DNA from: Escherichia coli
GTDB lineage: Bacteria > Pseudomonadota > Gammaproteobacteria > Enterobacterales > Enterobacteriaceae
NCBI RefSeq assembly: GCF_002854065.1
Contig: NZ_CP024147.1
Length of the DNA stretch: 64,000 nt
Reading direction: 5' to 3' (one strand)
A program made the position numbers and the translations under genes. Positions 1-54,651 of the stretch are shown piece by piece (the first letter of the stretch is position 1; every line of letters starts with the position of its first letter). Under the pieces are notes generated by a model. That model searched no databases. It worked only from the letters and a program-made list of their open reading frames with translations, and was not told the origin of the DNA.

Positions 1-212
1 CTTATCTGGCCTGGCTTGATCTACGTCCATTGAATATTGACGACAACGCGTTGCAAAAAGCGCTTATCGAGCAAGAAAAGGTCGCGATCATGCCGGGGTA
101 TACCTACGGTGAAGAAGGTCGTGGTTTTGTCCGTCTCAATGCCGGCTGCCCACGTTCGAAACTGGAAAAAGGTGTGGCTGGATTAATTAACGCCATCCGC
201 GCTGTTCGTTAA
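1..212 (+). CDS. malY: 3' end of upstream gene (start lies outside window); C-terminal ~60 aa of a PLP-dependent aminotransferase-fold protein, consistent with MalY (cystathionine beta-lyase / Mal regulon modulator)
   Basis: ORF track 30..212 ends ...GFVRLNAGCPRSKLEKGVAGLINAIRAVR; position immediately upstream of add matches K-12 gene order. Confidence 0.7.
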   Translation, partial: YLAWLDLRPLNIDDNALQKALIEQEKVAIMPGYTYGEEGRGFVRLNAGCPRSKLEKGVAGLINAIRAVR

Positions 213-315
213 CCCCAATTGCGCAACGTAAAAAATCGTTGCGCAATCGTGGATTTTTACCCTGCTTTGTTTTTATAATGGTGCGCACTTTTATATCCAG
301 AAAAAGAGTGCGACC

Positions 316-1317
316 ATGATTGATACCACCCTGCCATTAACTGATATCCATCGCCACCTTGATGGCAACATTCGTCCCCAGACCATTCTTGAACTTGGCC
401 GCCAGTATAATATCTCGCTTCCTGCACAATCCCTGGAAACACTGATTCCCCACGTTCAGGTCATTGCCAACGAACCCGATCTGGTGAGCTTTCTGACCAA
501 ACTTGACTGGGGCGTTAAAGTTCTCGCCTCTCTTGATGCTTGTCGCCGCGTGGCATTTGAAAACATTGAAGATGCAGCCCGTCACGGCCTGCACTATGTC
601 GAGCTGCGTTTTTCTCCAGGCTACATGGCAATGGCACATCAGCTGCCTGTTGCAGGTGTTGTTGAAGCGGTGATCGATGGCGTACGTGAAGGTTGCCGCA
701 CCTTTGGTGTGCAGGCGAAGCTTATCGGCATTATGAGCCGAACCTTCGGCGAAGCCGCCTGTCAGCAAGAGCTGGAGGCCTTTTTAGCCCACCGTGACCA
801 GATTACCGCACTTGATTTAGCCGGTGATGAACTTGGTTTCCCGGGAAGTCTGTTTCTTTCTCACTTCAACCGCGCGCGTGATGCGGGCTGGCATATTACC
901 GTCCATGCAGGCGAAGCTGCCGGGCCGGAAAGCATCTGGCAGGCGATTCGTGAACTGGGTGCGGAGCGTATTGGACATGGCGTAAAAGCCATTGAAGATC
1001 GGGCGCTGATGGATTTTCTCGCCGAGCAACAAATTGGTATTGAATCCTGTCTGACCTCCAATATTCAGACCAGCACCGTGGCTGAGCTGGCTGCACATCC
1101 GCTGAAAACGTTCCTTGAGCATGGCATTCGTGCCAGCATTAACACTGACGATCCCGGCGTACAGGGAGTGGATATCATTCACGAATATAACGTTGCCGCG
1201 CCAGCTGCTGGGTTATCCCGCGAGCAAATCCGCCAGGCACAGATTAATGGTCTGGAAATGGCTTTCCTCAGCGCTGAGGAAAAACGCGCACTGCGAGAAA
1301 AAGCCGCAGCGAAGTAA
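316..1317 (+). CDS. add: adenosine deaminase
   Basis: 333-aa ORF; recognised sequence ([21 protein letters not shown]..., metal-binding HxH motif near N-terminus). Confidence 0.95.
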
Positions 1318-1352
1318 CAAAAATGGATGGTGCAAATTGCACCATCCATTTT

Positions 1353-2393
1353 TCATGCAAGGCACAAAGTCGCGCGATGTTTGGCGGATTCAATGCCCAG
1401 CTCAATCAACTCCATTACCTGGATTGCCTGGCTTGCCGGAACCGGATTTTCACCATCGCCATTTAACGCATCACGAATCGCCGCATAGTAAGCCGGATAA
1501 TTCCCAGGCACCGTCAACAGCGTTTCTTCGACACGTTCCTCACCTACCACGCGGGTAAGTACGCCATCACGCATATCGTAGCCCCAGTCTTCCTGCGGCA
1601 GACGCTCGCCACTTTTCAGACGTTCTTCCTGTGGATCGAGGCCATATTTCACATAACTGCCTCGGGATCCATGCACGATATACCGTGCTGACTCAGCGGC
1701 TGCCAGCATGGTACCGTGTAAAATGACTCGCCGCTGTGGATAGGACAAGATGGCGTGGAAATAATCGGTCGACTGCGCTCCGGGCCGTAACTGTGCCAAA
1801 TCTACCGTCATGCTGACCGGTAAACCAAATAGCGTAATGGCCTGATCAAGAAGATGTGGTGCTAAATCGTACCAGATACCGCTGCCTGGGCCGCCCTGTT
1901 CACGCCAACGATCGCGCACCTGCGGACGGAAGCGGTCAAAATGAGACTCAAAGTAAGCAACTTCACCCAGCACGCCTTCCGCGAGCAAACCTTTTAGCGT
2001 CAAGAAATCGCTATCCCAACGACGGTTATGGAATACAGACAGCACACGCCCCAGGCTTTTTGCCAGCGCATCCAGCTCTCGCGCTTGTGACAGTGTCACG
2101 GTAAAGGGTTTATCAACGACCACATGTTTACCCGCCTCAAGCGCCGCTTTGGCTAACAGGAAATGGGTATCGTTGGGTGTAGGAATGACAATCAGGTCTA
2201 TGTTGGGATCGTTAAACAGATGCTTCGGCTCAGAGACAACCGTAACCGTTGGCCAGTCGGCTTTTACTTTTGTTTCATCACTGCTGGAGATTACCGCCAG
2301 TTCCAGCCCGGGCGTGCCCGCAATCAGGGGCGCATGGAAGGTTTTGCTCGCATAACCATACCCAATCAACCCAACACGGATGTTGTCGCTCAT
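1353..2393 (-). CDS. ydgJ: Gfo/Idh/MocA-family NAD(P)-dependent oxidoreductase
   Basis: ORF track 1353..2432; start trimmed to ATG at 2391-2393 (MSDNIRVGLIGYGYASK Rossmann motif) preceded by GAGAGG-like RBS; 346 aa. Confidence 0.9.
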   Translation of the reverse strand: MSDNIRVGLIGYGYASKTFHAPLIAGTPGLELAVISSSDETKVKADWPTVTVVSEPKHLFNDPNIDLIVIPTPNDTHFLLAKAALEAGKHVVVDKPFTVTLSQARELDALAKSLGRVLSVFHNRRWDSDFLTLKGLLAEGVLGEVAYFESHFDRFRPQVRDRWREQGGPGSGIWYDLAPHLLDQAITLFGLPVSMTVDLAQLRPGAQSTDYFHAILSYPQRRVILHGTMLAAAESARYIVHGSRGSYVKYGLDPQEERLKSGERLPQEDWGYDMRDGVLTRVVGEERVEETLLTVPGNYPAYYAAIRDALNGDGENPVPASQAIQVMELIELGIESAKHRATLCLA

Positions 2394-2635
2394 GTCATTG
2401 CCTCTCATTGAAGTATGATGGCTATTTGACACTATCCTTTACCCTCGCTCAACAGTTTAATAACCTGCCAGCAATAAGGGATGTTGTTTAACTTAAGTCA
2501 AAAAAATAGCGATTTTTCCAACGACAAAAGCTAAATATCGCAAAAACCTCAGTAAAAATCTTGCTGGAGCTATTATTGCTAAGTAACATTTACCCCCTGA
2601 AGTTAATGGATCAATCAACAGAGATGTGAGTTGTA

Positions 2636-2761
2636 ATGAATCGTCTTATTGAATTAACAGGTTGGATCGTTCTTGTCGTTTCAGTCATTCTTCTTGGCGT
2701 GGCGAGTCACATTGACAACTATCAGCCACCTGAACAGAGTACTACGGTACAACACAAGTAA
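2636..2761 (+). CDS. blr: 41-aa small membrane protein Blr (beta-lactam resistance / divisome-associated)
   Basis: Hand-translated: MNRLIELTGWIVLVVSVILLGVASHIDNYQPPEQSTTVQHK, stop TAA; below the 60-aa ORF-track cutoff; single hydrophobic helix. Confidence 0.85.
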   Translation: MNRLIELTGWIVLVVSVILLGVASHIDNYQPPEQSTTVQHK

Positions 2762-3033
2762 GCTCTGCGCTTGTAGAGCGACATGCTGCCCGTCCGGGTG
2801 CATGTTTTCACTTGTCGGATATTAAACCAGGAATTTATTATCTTGTTCGGTGTTGTTGGTGATTGTCAGGGATAGTAAAGCGCGTTACTCTTTTCATAGC
2901 AGTTTTTCATCCCTGAATATTTGCCATCAGCGCATTCTTATTATTGTAATAACACAAGCGTTCACTTTTGGTGAAATTTTATCATCACTAATAATACCTA
3001 CCCCTTTGGTATTAATTATTTTATGGACCTTTT

Positions 3034-3249
3034 ATGACTGTTCAGGACTACTTATTAAAATTTCGCAAAATCAGTTCACTCGAAAGTCTGGAAAAACTCT
3101 ACGACCATCTTAATTACACCCTGACGGACGATCAGGAACTGATCAATATGTATCGTGCTGCCGATCACCGTCGCGCAGAGCTGGTTTCTGGCGGGCGTTT
3201 GTTTGACCTTGGCCAGGTACCGAAGTCCGTCTGGCACTATGTCCAATAA
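3034..3249 (+). CDS. cnu: Hha/YmoA-family nucleoid-associated protein Cnu (OriC-binding nucleoid-associated protein)
   Basis: 71-aa [31 protein letters not shown]... recognised. Confidence 0.93.
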
Positions 3250-3334
3250 AGAAAGTAGCGATCGGTTATAAAAGCCTTATAATAACGCCCCTAAAATTAG
3301 ATTTGCCTGTTTGCGTCGCTATTCTGGAGAACCT

Positions 3335-3775
3335 ATGACCACCACAACGCCACAACGTATTGGAGGCTGGTTGCTTGGCCCGTTGGCCTGGCTTTTAGTC
3401 GCTCTGTTAAGTACGACGCTGGCGTTGTTGCTGTATACCGCTGCGTTATCTTCTCCGCAAACATTTCAAACGCTCGGCGCACAAGCACTGACGACACAAA
3501 TCTTATGGGGCGTTTCTTTTATTACCGCTATCGCCATGTGGTATTACACACTGTGGTTGACCATCGCTTTCTTTAAACGTCGGCGTTGTGTTCCTAAACA
3601 CTATATTATCTGGCTGCTTATTTCCGTATTGCTGGCAGTAAAAGCGTTCGCTTTTTCACCCGTGGAAGATGGCATAGCCGTTCGCCAGTTGCTGTTTACT
3701 TTGTTGGCAACCGCATTGATCGTCCCCTATTTCAAACGCTCGTCGCGGGTGAAAGCGACGTTTGTGAATCCGTAA
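3335..3775 (+). CDS. ydgK: inner membrane protein YdgK (DUF2569)
   Basis: ORF track 3311..3775; start trimmed to internal ATG (MTTTTPQRIGGWLLG...) giving 146 aa; multiple hydrophobic helices. Confidence 0.85.
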   Translation: MTTTTPQRIGGWLLGPLAWLLVALLSTTLALLLYTAALSSPQTFQTLGAQALTTQILWGVSFITAIAMWYYTLWLTIAFFKRRRCVPKHYIIWLLISVLLAVKAFAFSPVEDGIAVRQLLFTLLATALIVPYFKRSSRVKATFVNP

Positions 3776-4433: not shown

Positions 4434-7322
<2,889 letters not shown>

Positions 7323-35468: not shown

Positions 35469-35632
35469 GCCTTATCTCCACCTCTTCGCGTCATTACGCG
35501 ATATTCATTAAAGTGGCGAAAGCATGCAGCAATCACAAAAAAATGAAAATAACAAAAAGAGAAAACACTTTTGCCATTTTGCTAACAAACAGGAAGGAGA
35601 TGCGAGGGAGAACGCGCTCCCTCGAGAGGAAA

Positions 35633-35722
35633 TCAGTGCAGCGCGGCAGTCAAACCCACGGCTACGATCAAACCGAGGACGATAATCGTTGTTACCAGTG
35701 AAAATTTAAGGTCGGTGCTCAT
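35633..35722 (-). CDS. ynhF: 29-aa small membrane protein YnhF
   Basis: Hand-translated minus strand: MSTDLKFSLVTTIIVLGLIVAVGLTAALH, stop TGA; below ORF-track cutoff. Confidence 0.75.
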   Translation of the reverse strand: MSTDLKFSLVTTIIVLGLIVAVGLTAALH

Positions 35723-35959
35723 CAAGTTTTCTCCTTTTTTATTACCACACAAAAAGTGATATTACGCATTTTTACACACTGTGATGAAAAAATCTCCCGT
35801 CATTTATAATGATAAGTGTTTTTACCACTTCCCCTTTTCGTCAAGATCGGCCAAAATTCCACGCTTACACTATTTGCGTACTGGCCATTGACCCCTTCCT
35901 GACGCTCCGTGTCGTTTTTCCGGCGTACCGCAACACTTTTGTTGTGCGTAAGGTGTGTA

Positions 35960-35975
35960 AAGGCAAACGTTTACC
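35960..35975. promoter_or_regulatory. PUR box (PurR operator O1) in purR leader
   Basis: aaggcaaacgtttacc matches PurR operator core GCAAACGTTT. Confidence 0.6.
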
Positions 35976-36020
35976 TTGCGATTTTGCAGGAGCTGAAGTT
36001 AGGGTCTGGAGTGAAATGGA

Positions 36021-44611: not shown

Positions 44612-44688
44612 GCGTTCATAGCTCAGTTGGTTAGAGCACCACCTTGACATGGTGGGGGTCGTTGGTTCGAGTCCAATTGAACGCACCA
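44612..44688 (+). tRNA. valV: tRNA-Val (anticodon GAC)
   Basis: gcgttcatagctcagttggttagagcacc...cttGACat...ggttcgagtcc...acgcacca; cloverleaf with encoded CCA. Confidence 0.95.
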
Positions 44689-44692
44689 TCCT

Positions 44693-44769
44693 GCGTCCGT
44701 AGCTCAGTTGGTTAGAGCACCACCTTGACATGGTGGGGGTCGGTGGTTCGAGTCCACTCGGACGCACCA
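44693..44769 (+). tRNA. valW: tRNA-Val (anticodon GAC), second copy
   Basis: Near-identical copy 4 nt downstream of valV; differs in acceptor/T-arm bases. Confidence 0.95.
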
Positions 44770-44876
44770 GATTTTCTTAATCTGGTCTTCTCCTTTTTCC
44801 CTCTGCTTCTTCTCTGTATCCAATACGTTAAAAGATTTACACTGTCTTCGTATGCGTTATCAGAAGGAGAATCGCT

Positions 44877-45182
44877 ATGGCAACTTTGTTACAACTTCAT
44901 TTTGCTTTTAATGGCCCATTTGGCGACGCAATGGCTGAGCAGCTTAAACCACTTGCTGAGTCGATTAATCAGGAACCTGGTTTTCTGTGGAAGGTATGGA
45001 CAGAAAGTGAAAAGAACCACGAAGCCGGCGGGATCTACCTTTTCACTGATGAAAAAAGCGCCCTTGCCTATCTGGAAAAACACACTGCCCGACTGAAAAA
45101 TCTCGGCGTTGAGGAAGTTGTCGCCAAAGTTTTCGATGTCAATGAGCCACTGAGTCAAATCAATCAGGCAAAACTCGCCTGA
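44877..45182 (+). CDS. ydhR: putative monooxygenase YdhR (dimeric alpha/beta barrel)
   Basis: 101-aa [27 protein letters not shown]...; recognised. Confidence 0.9.
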
Positions 45183-49904: not shown

Positions 49905-52091
<2,187 letters not shown>

Positions 52092-52504
52092 TCACCGCAT
52101 AACACACATTTCGAGGATTTTTTACTTTCGGTATTTACGGTGGCCATCATCCACGGGCATGCCGTAGTACAGGCGCTACAGCCAATACAACGTTTATGAT
52201 CGACGGTAATACAGCCTTCTTTCTGCTGCCAGGTAATCGCACCAATCGGGCAGACGTTCATGCATTGCGGCTCTTTGCATTGACGGCAGGTGTCCGCGGT
52301 ATAGTTGAGATCGCCATACAGGCCGCCGCCAGAGCCAACCCCGTTGTCGCCAAAGAAATAATTGCGATGGATTTTGATACGGGAGAAGAATGTCCCTACT
52401 GAGCCATCGTTGAAGTTGGTACAAGAGATTTCACAGCGGTGGCAACCCGTGCATCGCGCTCGCTGGGTCACCAGCTCCCCTTTGGGTGTATTTATCAACC
52501 CTAC

Positions 52505-52512: not shown

Positions 52513-52567
52513 GGTGATGCTGCCAACTTACTGATTTAGTGTATGATGGTGTTTTTGAGGTGCTCCA

Positions 52568-52843
52568 GTGGCTTCTGTTTCTATCAGCTGTCCCTCCTGT
52601 TCAGCTACTGACGGGGTGGTGCGTAACGGCAAAAGCACTGCCGGACATCAGCGCTATCTCTGCTCTCACTGCCGTAAAACATGGCAACTGCAGTTCACTT
52701 ACACCGCTTCTCAACCCGGTACGCACCAGAAAATCATTGATATGGCCATGAATGGCGTTGGATGCCGGGCAACCGCCCGCATTATGGGCGTTGGCCTCAA
52801 CACGATTTTCCGCCATTTAAAAAACTCAGGCCGCAGTCGGTAA
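52568..52843 (+). CDS. insA: IS1 InsA (transposition inhibitor / N-terminal part of transposase)
   Basis: 91-aa [43 protein letters not shown]... Confidence 0.95.
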
Positions 52844-53265
52844 CCTCGCGCATACAGCCGGGCAGTGACGTCATCGTCTGCGCGGAAATGGACGAACAGT
52901 GGGGATACGTCGGGGCTAAATCGCGCCAGCGCTGGCTGTTTTACGCGTATGACAGGCTCCGGAAGACGGTTGTTGCGCACGTATTCGGTGAACGCACTAT
53001 GGCGACGCTGGGGCGTCTTATGAGCCTGCTGTCACCCTTTGACGTGGTGATATGGATGACGGATGGCTGGCCGCTGTATGAATCCCGCCTGAAGGGAAAG
53101 CTGCACGTAATCAGCAAGCGATATACGCAGCGAATTGAGCGGCATAACCTGAATCTGAGGCAGCACCTGGCACGGCTGGGACGGAAGTCGCTGTCGTTCT
53201 CAAAATCGGTGGAGCTGCATGACAAAGTCATCGGGCATTATCTGAACATAAAACACTATCAATAA
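52762..53265 (+). CDS. insB: IS1 InsB (expressed as InsAB' transposase by -1 frameshift at A6C, 52819-52825)
   Basis: 167-aa ORF in -1 frame relative to insA; ttaaaaaac slippery run present. Confidence 0.9.
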
Positions 53266-53280
53266 GTTGGAGTCATTACC

Positions 53281-53288
53281 TGTGCCGC
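53281..53288. repeat. right copy of the target-site duplication flanking IS1
   Basis: tgtgccgc immediately 3' of the IS1 right end. Confidence 0.85.
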
Positions 53289-53631
53289 TATCAATATCTT
53301 CCTGTTTGCAACCCAAAAGTGACAGTAACGCAGGGGCAATTGTTAGACCAGCAAGGCCTTTTCCTGATATACGCAAGAATTCTAATCGCGTTAAGCCAAT
53401 ATCTAATAGTGGACGATCAACCGGGTTCATTTATTTCGCATCCTCTTCGCAAACACAGTGCTGACAATTCAGCAGCCTGATATTAAGCATTCAACTAATA
53501 CGCTGCTGACTCTGTCCTCAACACCAGATATTTTCCCTAACCCGATAGTGTATGAGAAAAGATTTAACGCCGATAAACTAATCCTTTATGGTTAGGAGAA
53601 AAAATAATGTGGTTATTCTGGGCTCTTAACA

Positions 53632-54444: not shown

Positions 54445-54651
54445 GCACTTTGGACTGTAGAACTCAACGACTCAAAAACAGGCACTCACGTTGGGCTGAG
54501 ACACAAGCACACATTCCTCTGCACGCTTTTTCGATGTCACCTATCCTTAGAGCGAGGCACCACCACTTTCGTAATACCGGATTCGCTTTCCGGCAGTGCG
54601 CCCAGAAAGCAAGTTTCTCCCATCCTTCTCAACTTAAAGACTAAGACTGTC

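Follow-up and report, generated by a model that had tools for sequence, protein, structure and literature searches.

Does the short open reading frame between the divergent genes ydgJ and cnu/ydgT of Escherichia coli encode a genuine small protein, or is it one of the many short frames that any stretch of DNA contains? We considered this question for a stretch of 64,000 nucleotides (RefSeq assembly GCF_002854065.1, contig NZ_CP024147.1; hereafter the window), which is a piece of the E. coli chromosome collinear with that of strain K-12 MG1655 from approximately position 1,701,916. An earlier note, made from the sequence of the window, had claimed that an ORF runs cleanly from an ATG at position 2636 to a TAA, that it encodes the single-helix membrane protein Blr of 41 amino acids, and that it had been concealed by the length floor of the ORF track. 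Indeed, an ORF listing with a minimum length of 20 amino acids (min_aa=20) contains this frame on the plus strand, with 41 codons followed by a TAA that ends at 2761 and with the product MNRLIELTGWIVLVVSVILLGVASHIDNYQPPEQSTTVQHK. The ORF track has a default floor of 60 amino acids, and the 41-residue ORF shows once this floor is set to 20 amino acids, so that the concealment can be traced to the floor itself. As set out below, the feature is very likely E. coli blr (b4409), a real and conserved coding gene of 41 codons located between divergent ydgJ and cnu/ydgT. Public genomes already carry it as an annotated gene and it has been studied by experiment, so that the observation, while correct, is ordinary.

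The identification as Blr is supported by family models, by the K-12 annotation and by alignment. The window protein matches the NCBIfam equivalog model NF033231 (small_Blr) with 91.3 bits against a cut-off of 40, covering profile positions 1-40 of 40, and the Pfam family PF24673 (Blr_divisome) with 87.9 bits against a cut-off of 27, covering profile positions 1-41 of 41; both are full-length matches above the curated cut-offs. It also has the length expected of the family, about 41 amino acids, with one hydrophobic predicted transmembrane (TM) helix. Blr of K-12 MG1655 (b4409, YP_025303.1; ‘beta-lactam resistance protein’ or ‘division septum protein Blr’) likewise has 41 residues, 39 of which are identical to those of the window protein, and its gene is found at the identical offset with the same neighbours, ydgJ and cnu. 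The orthologous arrangement, with ydgJ divergent and then blr, cnu/ydgT and ydgK-rsxABC, is present both in the window and in K-12. The RefSeq/PGAP annotation at 2636-2761 is blr. Moreover, a region of 901 bp that includes the gene was matched in 5,424 of 5,426 complete E. coli genomes, and among the matches listed for this region all were annotated as ‘blr: division septum protein Blr’. The description of blr as a missed gene is therefore accurate for the 60-residue track only, since in public genomes it is annotated by PGAP and in the K-12 reference. The coordinates of the gene and of the features discussed below are listed in Table 1.

Table 1. Features of the blr locus and the second small gene of the window, with positions in the window.
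Feature	Position	Strand	Basis
-35-like hexamer TTGCTG	2561..2566	+	CTTGC invariant in 7 sequences from 5 genera
-10-like hexamer TAACAT, 17 nt after the -35-like hexamer	2584..2589	+	GTAA(C/T)ATT in 7/7 sequences, 7/8 columns invariant
Mini-ORF MDQSTEM* (ATG GAT CAA TCA ACA GAG ATG TGA)	2606..2629	+	codon-by-codon comparison
blr CDS	2636..2761	+	ORF, NF033231, PF24673, annotation, dN/dS 0.02-0.08
Predicted TM helix, codons 7-23 (LTGWIVLVVSVILLGVA)	2654..2704	+	highest mean hydropathy, 2.58
Juxtamembrane motif HIDNYQPP, codons 25-32	2708..2731	+	22-orthologue alignment
Allelic differences, codons 36-37 (Thr-Thr; Ala-Ser in K-12)	2741..2746	+	both first-position changes versus K-12
Tandem hairpins 2762-2779 and 2780-2806, then TTTT (2805-2808)	2762..2808	+	fold, pattern scan
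cydH/ynhF, 29 aa	35633-35722	-	annotated, NCBIfam model

The family is well conserved within a limited range of genera. When 5.8 billion proteins were searched, 100 clusters came back, and PF24673 was found in all of them. The named sources of these clusters are Escherichia, Shigella, Salmonella, Citrobacter, Enterobacter, Lelliottia, Leclercia and Intestinirhabdus, with one outlier from the same search, a fragment of 24 amino acids on a contig of 240 bp labelled Pseudomonas aeruginosa. The gene order add-ydgJ-blr-cnu-ydgK-rsxA is kept in Salmonella, Citrobacter koseri, Enterobacter, Lelliottia and Escherichia fergusonii, and cnu is retained at 5 of 5 of these orthologous loci, which span four other genera. 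The sole break in synteny that we saw concerns an ENT03-like Enterobacter (L010:1501-3138), where blr is followed by a gene for a family 1 glycoside hydrolase instead of cnu-ydgK-rsxA. The Blr orthologues (PF24673/NF033231) of Salmonella, Citrobacter, Enterobacter and Lelliottia are annotated at 41-53 amino acids, compared to 41 in the window, and both their TM helix and their HIDNYQPP motif are conserved as in the window protein, with a core that is under purifying selection.

The pattern of nucleotide substitution in this core, taken as codons 2-32, is that of a coding sequence. Among seven sequences, the variable columns are distributed over the first, second and third codon positions as 10/3/27, and the pooled pairwise differences as 99/24/339. 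The dN/dS values versus E. coli in the core lie between 0.02 and 0.08, and of all six reading frames the blr frame alone stays free of stop codons in 7 of 7 sequences. The Blr core is therefore under strong purifying selection.

The same cannot be said of ORF length and ribosome binding. Public annotation was mapped onto the window by BLAST, allowing for the insertion of an IS1 element, after which 7,268 unannotated bases remained. These bases contain 87 ORFs of 15-59 amino acids, 4 of which have at least 41 amino acids, among them one of 41 on the opposite strand close to blr (2493-2618). The Shine-Dalgarno (SD) duplex of blr has a free energy of -2.9 kcal/mol, a value that was matched or beaten at 32% of random positions in the window, and among the 87 background ORFs there are 21 with an SD equal to or better than that of blr. 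ORF length and SD strength do not separate blr from chance, and we did not retain the SD score as a discriminator. The earlier note had proposed to re-scan the intergenic regions with a cut-off of 15 amino acids plus RBS scoring; such a scan would not single out blr, because its SD is weak and these 21 background ORFs score as well.

With respect to translation, Supplementary Table 1 of PMC12350097, which concerns a BW25113-type strain, enters blr under ‘Ribo-ret only’ and gives it as undetected by the proteomics dataset and by the PIRT-Seq reporter screen. The absence of a translation signal in ribosome-profiling data had been named beforehand as the observation that would speak against the gene. 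Since Ribo-RET detects blr, and initiating ribosomes have accordingly been seen on the gene, albeit in a K-12 background and not with the haplotype of the window, this objection falls away. The preprint of Weaver et al. makes no mention of blr. The view that the 41 codons are a chance ORF in noncoding DNA without a functional protein, to which one could count the background of similar ORFs in 7.3 kb of unannotated DNA, an SD no better than at random positions, and a comparison with K-12 that yields 2 non-synonymous and 0 synonymous differences, is effectively refuted already and retains a negligible probability, as the HMM scores exceed twice the curated cut-offs, conservation and synteny reach four other genera, the dN/dS values and the third-position bias are those of a protein, Ribo-RET detects the gene, and both differences from K-12 are located in the variable tail.

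The claim that the window contains genes of less than 60 codons was borne out as well, since blr is accompanied by cydH/ynhF. By contrast, the suggestion that other intergenic stretches may hold unannotated small ORFs found little support, as cydH/ynhF is the sole other gene below 60 amino acids that the curated K-12 annotation and PGAP place in the window, and it is annotated. The 54 other unannotated ORFs of 20-59 amino acids gave no match to any NCBIfam or Pfam model in a search in which Blr and CydH served as controls; NCBIfam matched both of these, and Pfam matched Blr only, with no Pfam match for CydH. The small-ORF scan thus offers no candidate, though the window may still harbour undiscovered small proteins. 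Two ORFs on the opposite strand of the ydgJ-blr intergenic region, at 2488-2589 (33 aa, with a strong SD of -8.8 kcal/mol) and at 2493-2618 (41 aa), match no NCBIfam or Pfam family. Conservation of the DNA beneath them is poor between genera, and they are probably chance ORFs.

CydH/YnhF is an accessory subunit of cytochrome bd-I. Like Blr, it is a small membrane protein with a single helix that falls under the 60-residue floor, but the two proteins are unrelated in sequence and have different partner complexes. The SD of cydH is strong (AAGGAG, -8.7 kcal/mol, versus -2.9 for blr) and, unlike blr, cydH was detected by both Ribo-RET and the PIRT-Seq reporter (PMC12350097). An Rfam ‘sRNA’ family, STnc550, matches the minus strand at 35630-36020 with 396 bits. 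Because this match contains the cydH/ynhF ORF at its 3' end, STnc550 corresponds to the mRNA of the small protein CydH with its long leader. Two further genes are just over the 60-residue floor, namely the recently added ynhH (54450-54644, plus strand; 64 aa), which has a TTG start and a weak SD and is located directly 5' of pykF, and ydiH (62 aa), which is cut by the end of the window. The value of these observations is mainly one of calibration. A floor of 60 amino acids hides genuine and characterised genes, two of them (blr and cydH) in a single window, and a lower floor combined with RBS scoring returns mostly noise in the form of 87 background ORFs. Codon-aware conservation across genera and curated HMMs for small proteins recover exactly the two known genes.

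We next turn to the signals that flank the coding sequence. Among seven sequences from five genera, the intergenic region between ydgJ and blr is poorly conserved except for two blocks, which contain the -35-like and -10-like hexamers of Table 1. From these blocks we infer a promoter of the sigma-70 type with a transcription start near position 2596. A generic promoter scan, which required at least 9 of 12 consensus positions, reported no site directly 5' of blr; it is silent on TTGCTG and TAACAT because only 8 of the 12 positions match. Immediately 3' of the blr stop codon, the tandem hairpins have a minimum free energy of -25.7 to -27.3 kcal/mol (z = -4.1 to -4.6), and a pattern scan independently reports a terminator-like site over the same bases. 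This element looks like an intrinsic terminator and would presumably act as one. In the other genera compared, no structure comparable to the double hairpin was found, and the element is therefore specific to this lineage. Taken together, blr would probably be transcribed as a unit of approximately 215 nt, extending from the conserved promoter to the double-hairpin terminator just past the stop codon.

A short predicted transcript with a very stable 3' double hairpin may also bring to mind a locus that works chiefly through a regulatory RNA, be it an sRNA of dual function or a leader acting in cis on cnu, and in which the ORF would be secondary. Indeed, some Rfam ‘sRNA’ families are mRNAs of small proteins, as exemplified by STnc550 over cydH. 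For blr this explanation is highly improbable. Rfam, at the gathering threshold, returned no family match in the region 2400-3100, conservation of the locus tracks codon structure rather than RNA structure, and the 3' hairpins lack conservation outside E. coli.

One further point concerns the start codon of blr. Three nucleotide differences between the window and K-12 are located just 5' of the blr start, out of five in the whole intergenic region, and one of them converts a TGG of K-12 into a TGA (2627-2629) that closes the upstream frame. The window consequently carries a mini-ORF of 7 codons (Table 1), which is in frame with blr and stops 6 nt 5' of its ATG. In K-12 the upstream frame is open (ATG GAT CAA TCA AGA GAG ATG TGG GCT GTA ATG), and therefore forms of 45 and 51 amino acids are formally possible in that strain. 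In the strain of the window, translation should be able to start solely at the ATG at 2636, because the TGA three codons upstream closes the frame. This allele is not rare. The exact 70-nt haplotype of the window occurs in at least 396 of 5,397 E. coli genomes (at least 7% of the complete ones), including O157:H7 and O145 strains, and an exact match to the open K-12 haplotype occurs in 3,085 of 5,399.

The comparison with other genera gives a varied picture of this upstream stretch. The mini-ORF corresponds to an N-terminal extension that is annotated in other genera; in Enterobacter and Lelliottia this stretch belongs to the protein. An ATG four codons upstream of the blr start is conserved in every sequence compared except that of E. 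fergusonii, which has several stop codons in the upstream stretch, and both ATGs are present in Salmonella, Citrobacter and K-12. In Enterobacter, Lelliottia and the ENT03-like Enterobacter, the codon aligned with Met1 of E. coli is ATT, ATC or TTC, and since this codon is not ATG, their start must be situated at least four codons upstream. Two database entries begin at non-canonical codons, the Blr of an Enterobacter at an ATT (L007:1501-1503; a call of 41 aa) and that of C. koseri at an ATA (L008:1501-1503; a call of 51 aa). These starts look as if they had been forced by the HMM, and the ATG four codons 5' of the Met1 position would be more plausible. Start calls also differ for the neighbouring gene: the longest ORF for ydgJ (1353-2432, minus strand) begins at a GTG at 2432 (359 aa), both annotations begin at an ATG at 2393 (346 aa), and the call in Salmonella is 371 aa.

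It could thus be argued that the true product has 45 or 51-53 residues and begins at an upstream ATG, and that the 41-residue form of the window is a truncated and perhaps impaired TGG-to-TGA allele. The conserved ATG at -4, the upstream starts that the Enterobacter and Lelliottia sequences require, the open frame of K-12 and many database entries of 45-53 amino acids all point in that direction. Nevertheless, we regard this as very unlikely for Escherichia. Within this genus the upstream stretch appears unconstrained, given the stops of E. fergusonii and the wide occurrence of the TGA haplotype, O157:H7 included. Over the 30 upstream nucleotides, the differences from E. coli are flat across codon positions, without periodicity, and the differences from K-12 are concentrated there. 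The family HMMs cover just the 41 residues, the title of the discovery paper of 2000 (Wong et al.) names a 41-residue protein, and the gene that the Ribo-RET comparison scored as detected is the annotated one. We conclude that in Escherichia the 41-residue form would be the functional Blr product. Across the family, the start codon may have been subject to turnover, with the ATG at -4 as the only usable one in Enterobacter and Lelliottia, and the downstream ATG as the only one that can give Blr both in the haplotype of the window and in E. fergusonii. The thought that the mini-ORF serves as a coupling or regulatory uORF, and that the output or the isoform of Blr differs between E. coli lineages for this reason, is speculative and we consider it unlikely. 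The upstream TGA/TGG polymorphism is a minor new point, yet it represents a small natural experiment on the choice of the Blr start codon in E. coli.

The anatomy of the 41-residue protein is simple. The best hydropathy window of 17 residues covers residues 7-23, with a mean Kyte-Doolittle value of 2.58, which is consistent with a single predicted TM helix. In an alignment of 22 representative orthologues, 16 columns are invariant (R3, E6, L7, S16, L19, L20, G21, A23, H25, I26, D27, N28, Y29, Q30, P32 and K41), and the window protein, itself the first sequence of the alignment, has every one of these residues. Six of them (L7, S16, L19, L20, G21 and A23) belong to the TM segment. In the HIDNYQPP motif that follows the helix, seven positions (H25, I26, D27, N28, Y29, Q30 and P32) do not vary among the 22 orthologues, and for P31 conservation is at least 90%. 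This motif is presumed to be periplasmic. Residues 33-40 form the variable part of the family alignment, and the two substitutions relative to K-12 Blr, A36T and S37T, fall inside it. A profile search of the PDB gave nonsignificant hydrophobic matches to OST-beta (E of approximately 0.2) and no solved structure that contains a relative.

Judged from these features, Blr would be a single-pass peptide of the inner membrane, probably oriented N-in/C-out, with a short N-terminus that bears the conserved charged residues R3 and E6, a TM helix at approximately residues 7-23, the HIDNYQPP motif and a variable tail. RseP, an intramembrane protease, cleaves tagged Blr in 4 of 4 assays, both in vivo and in vitro, and tagged Blr has been placed among its class I substrates (PMC10470546). 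RseP substrates are generally type II, with the N-in/C-out orientation, and RseP would contribute to the turnover of Blr.

As to the function of Blr, the title of the paper by Wong et al. (2000) refers to a phenotype of susceptibility to peptidoglycan inhibitors, with susceptibility to inhibitors of peptidoglycan synthesis reported to increase on loss of the gene, and the title of Karimova et al. (2012) describes Blr as a component of the cell-division machinery. Bacterial two-hybrid assays, on which the divisome interaction data largely rest, are regarded in one study as prone to false positives, given that Blr scored with 7 of the 12 divisome proteins tested; the same study found little or no interaction of Blr with DrpB (PMC7648144). 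Two other papers (PMC11188072 and PMC13334617) add nothing on Blr function. In the mechanism that we propose, the TM helix and the invariant HIDNYQPP motif would contact late divisome proteins, and Blr would aid septal peptidoglycan synthesis during envelope stress. A GFP fusion to Blr reportedly localises to the septum, for which late division proteins are required, and blr is reported to interact genetically with ftsQ(ts).

This mechanism has to be weighed against another possibility, namely that Blr is real, that its membership of the divisome is an artefact of promiscuous two-hybrid interactions, and that the beta-lactam effect arises through another envelope target or through a general effect on the membrane. 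Two points of PMC7648144 count in its favour, namely the 7 of 12 partners, which its authors call implausibly many, and the result for DrpB. In addition, the sequence specifies no partner, and the Blr family is taxonomically narrow, whereas the divisome is universal. On the other hand, an invariant juxtamembrane motif argues for a specific protein contact over a bulk effect on the membrane, and the reported septal fusion and ftsQ(ts) interactions count against the artefact, as does the attribution to the division machinery in the title of 2012. On balance the artefact is rather unlikely, and a role of Blr at the division septum would be the better account.

A useful parallel for Blr as a divisome protein is YmgF, an inner-membrane protein of E. 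coli with 72 residues. Like Blr, it is small and non-essential and was assigned to the divisome mainly by two-hybrid assays, by the same laboratory. YmgF is longer than Blr, neither HMM search suggested a relationship in sequence, and the likeness is functional only.

Lastly, several features elsewhere in the window deserve mention. An IS1 element of 768 bp is located at 52513-53280, with InsA at 52568-52843 and InsB at 52762-53265. Its terminal inverted repeats are GGTGATGCTGCCAACTTACTGAT and GGTAATGACTCCAACTTATTGAT, and it is flanked by a target duplication of 8-9 bp (TGTGCCGC). Neither K-12 nor strain 88-3493 (NZ_CP027457.1) has this element, which in the window splits the ferredoxin-like gene ydhY into two parts on the minus strand (52028-52498 and 53200-53430). 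Strain 88-3493 is 100% identical to the window over 2400-3300 and 99.0% identical over the first 52.5 kb. At 44731-44893 on the minus strand, there is a match to the Rfam ‘antisense RNA’ family HPnc0260. Two tRNA-Val genes stand in tandem on the other strand (44612-44685 and 44693-44766), the second of which overlaps this match, and HPnc0260 is probably a family built on sequence antisense to tRNA. In rsxC (5004-7322), a tandem repeat with a unit of 96 bp (32 aa) extends over 6660-7275, with 6.4 copies and 90% identity; RsxC has 772 residues in the window compared to 740 in K-12, which amounts to a single unit of the repeat. Finally, sodC, which is annotated as a frameshifted pseudogene in strain 88-3493, has an intact reading frame in the window.
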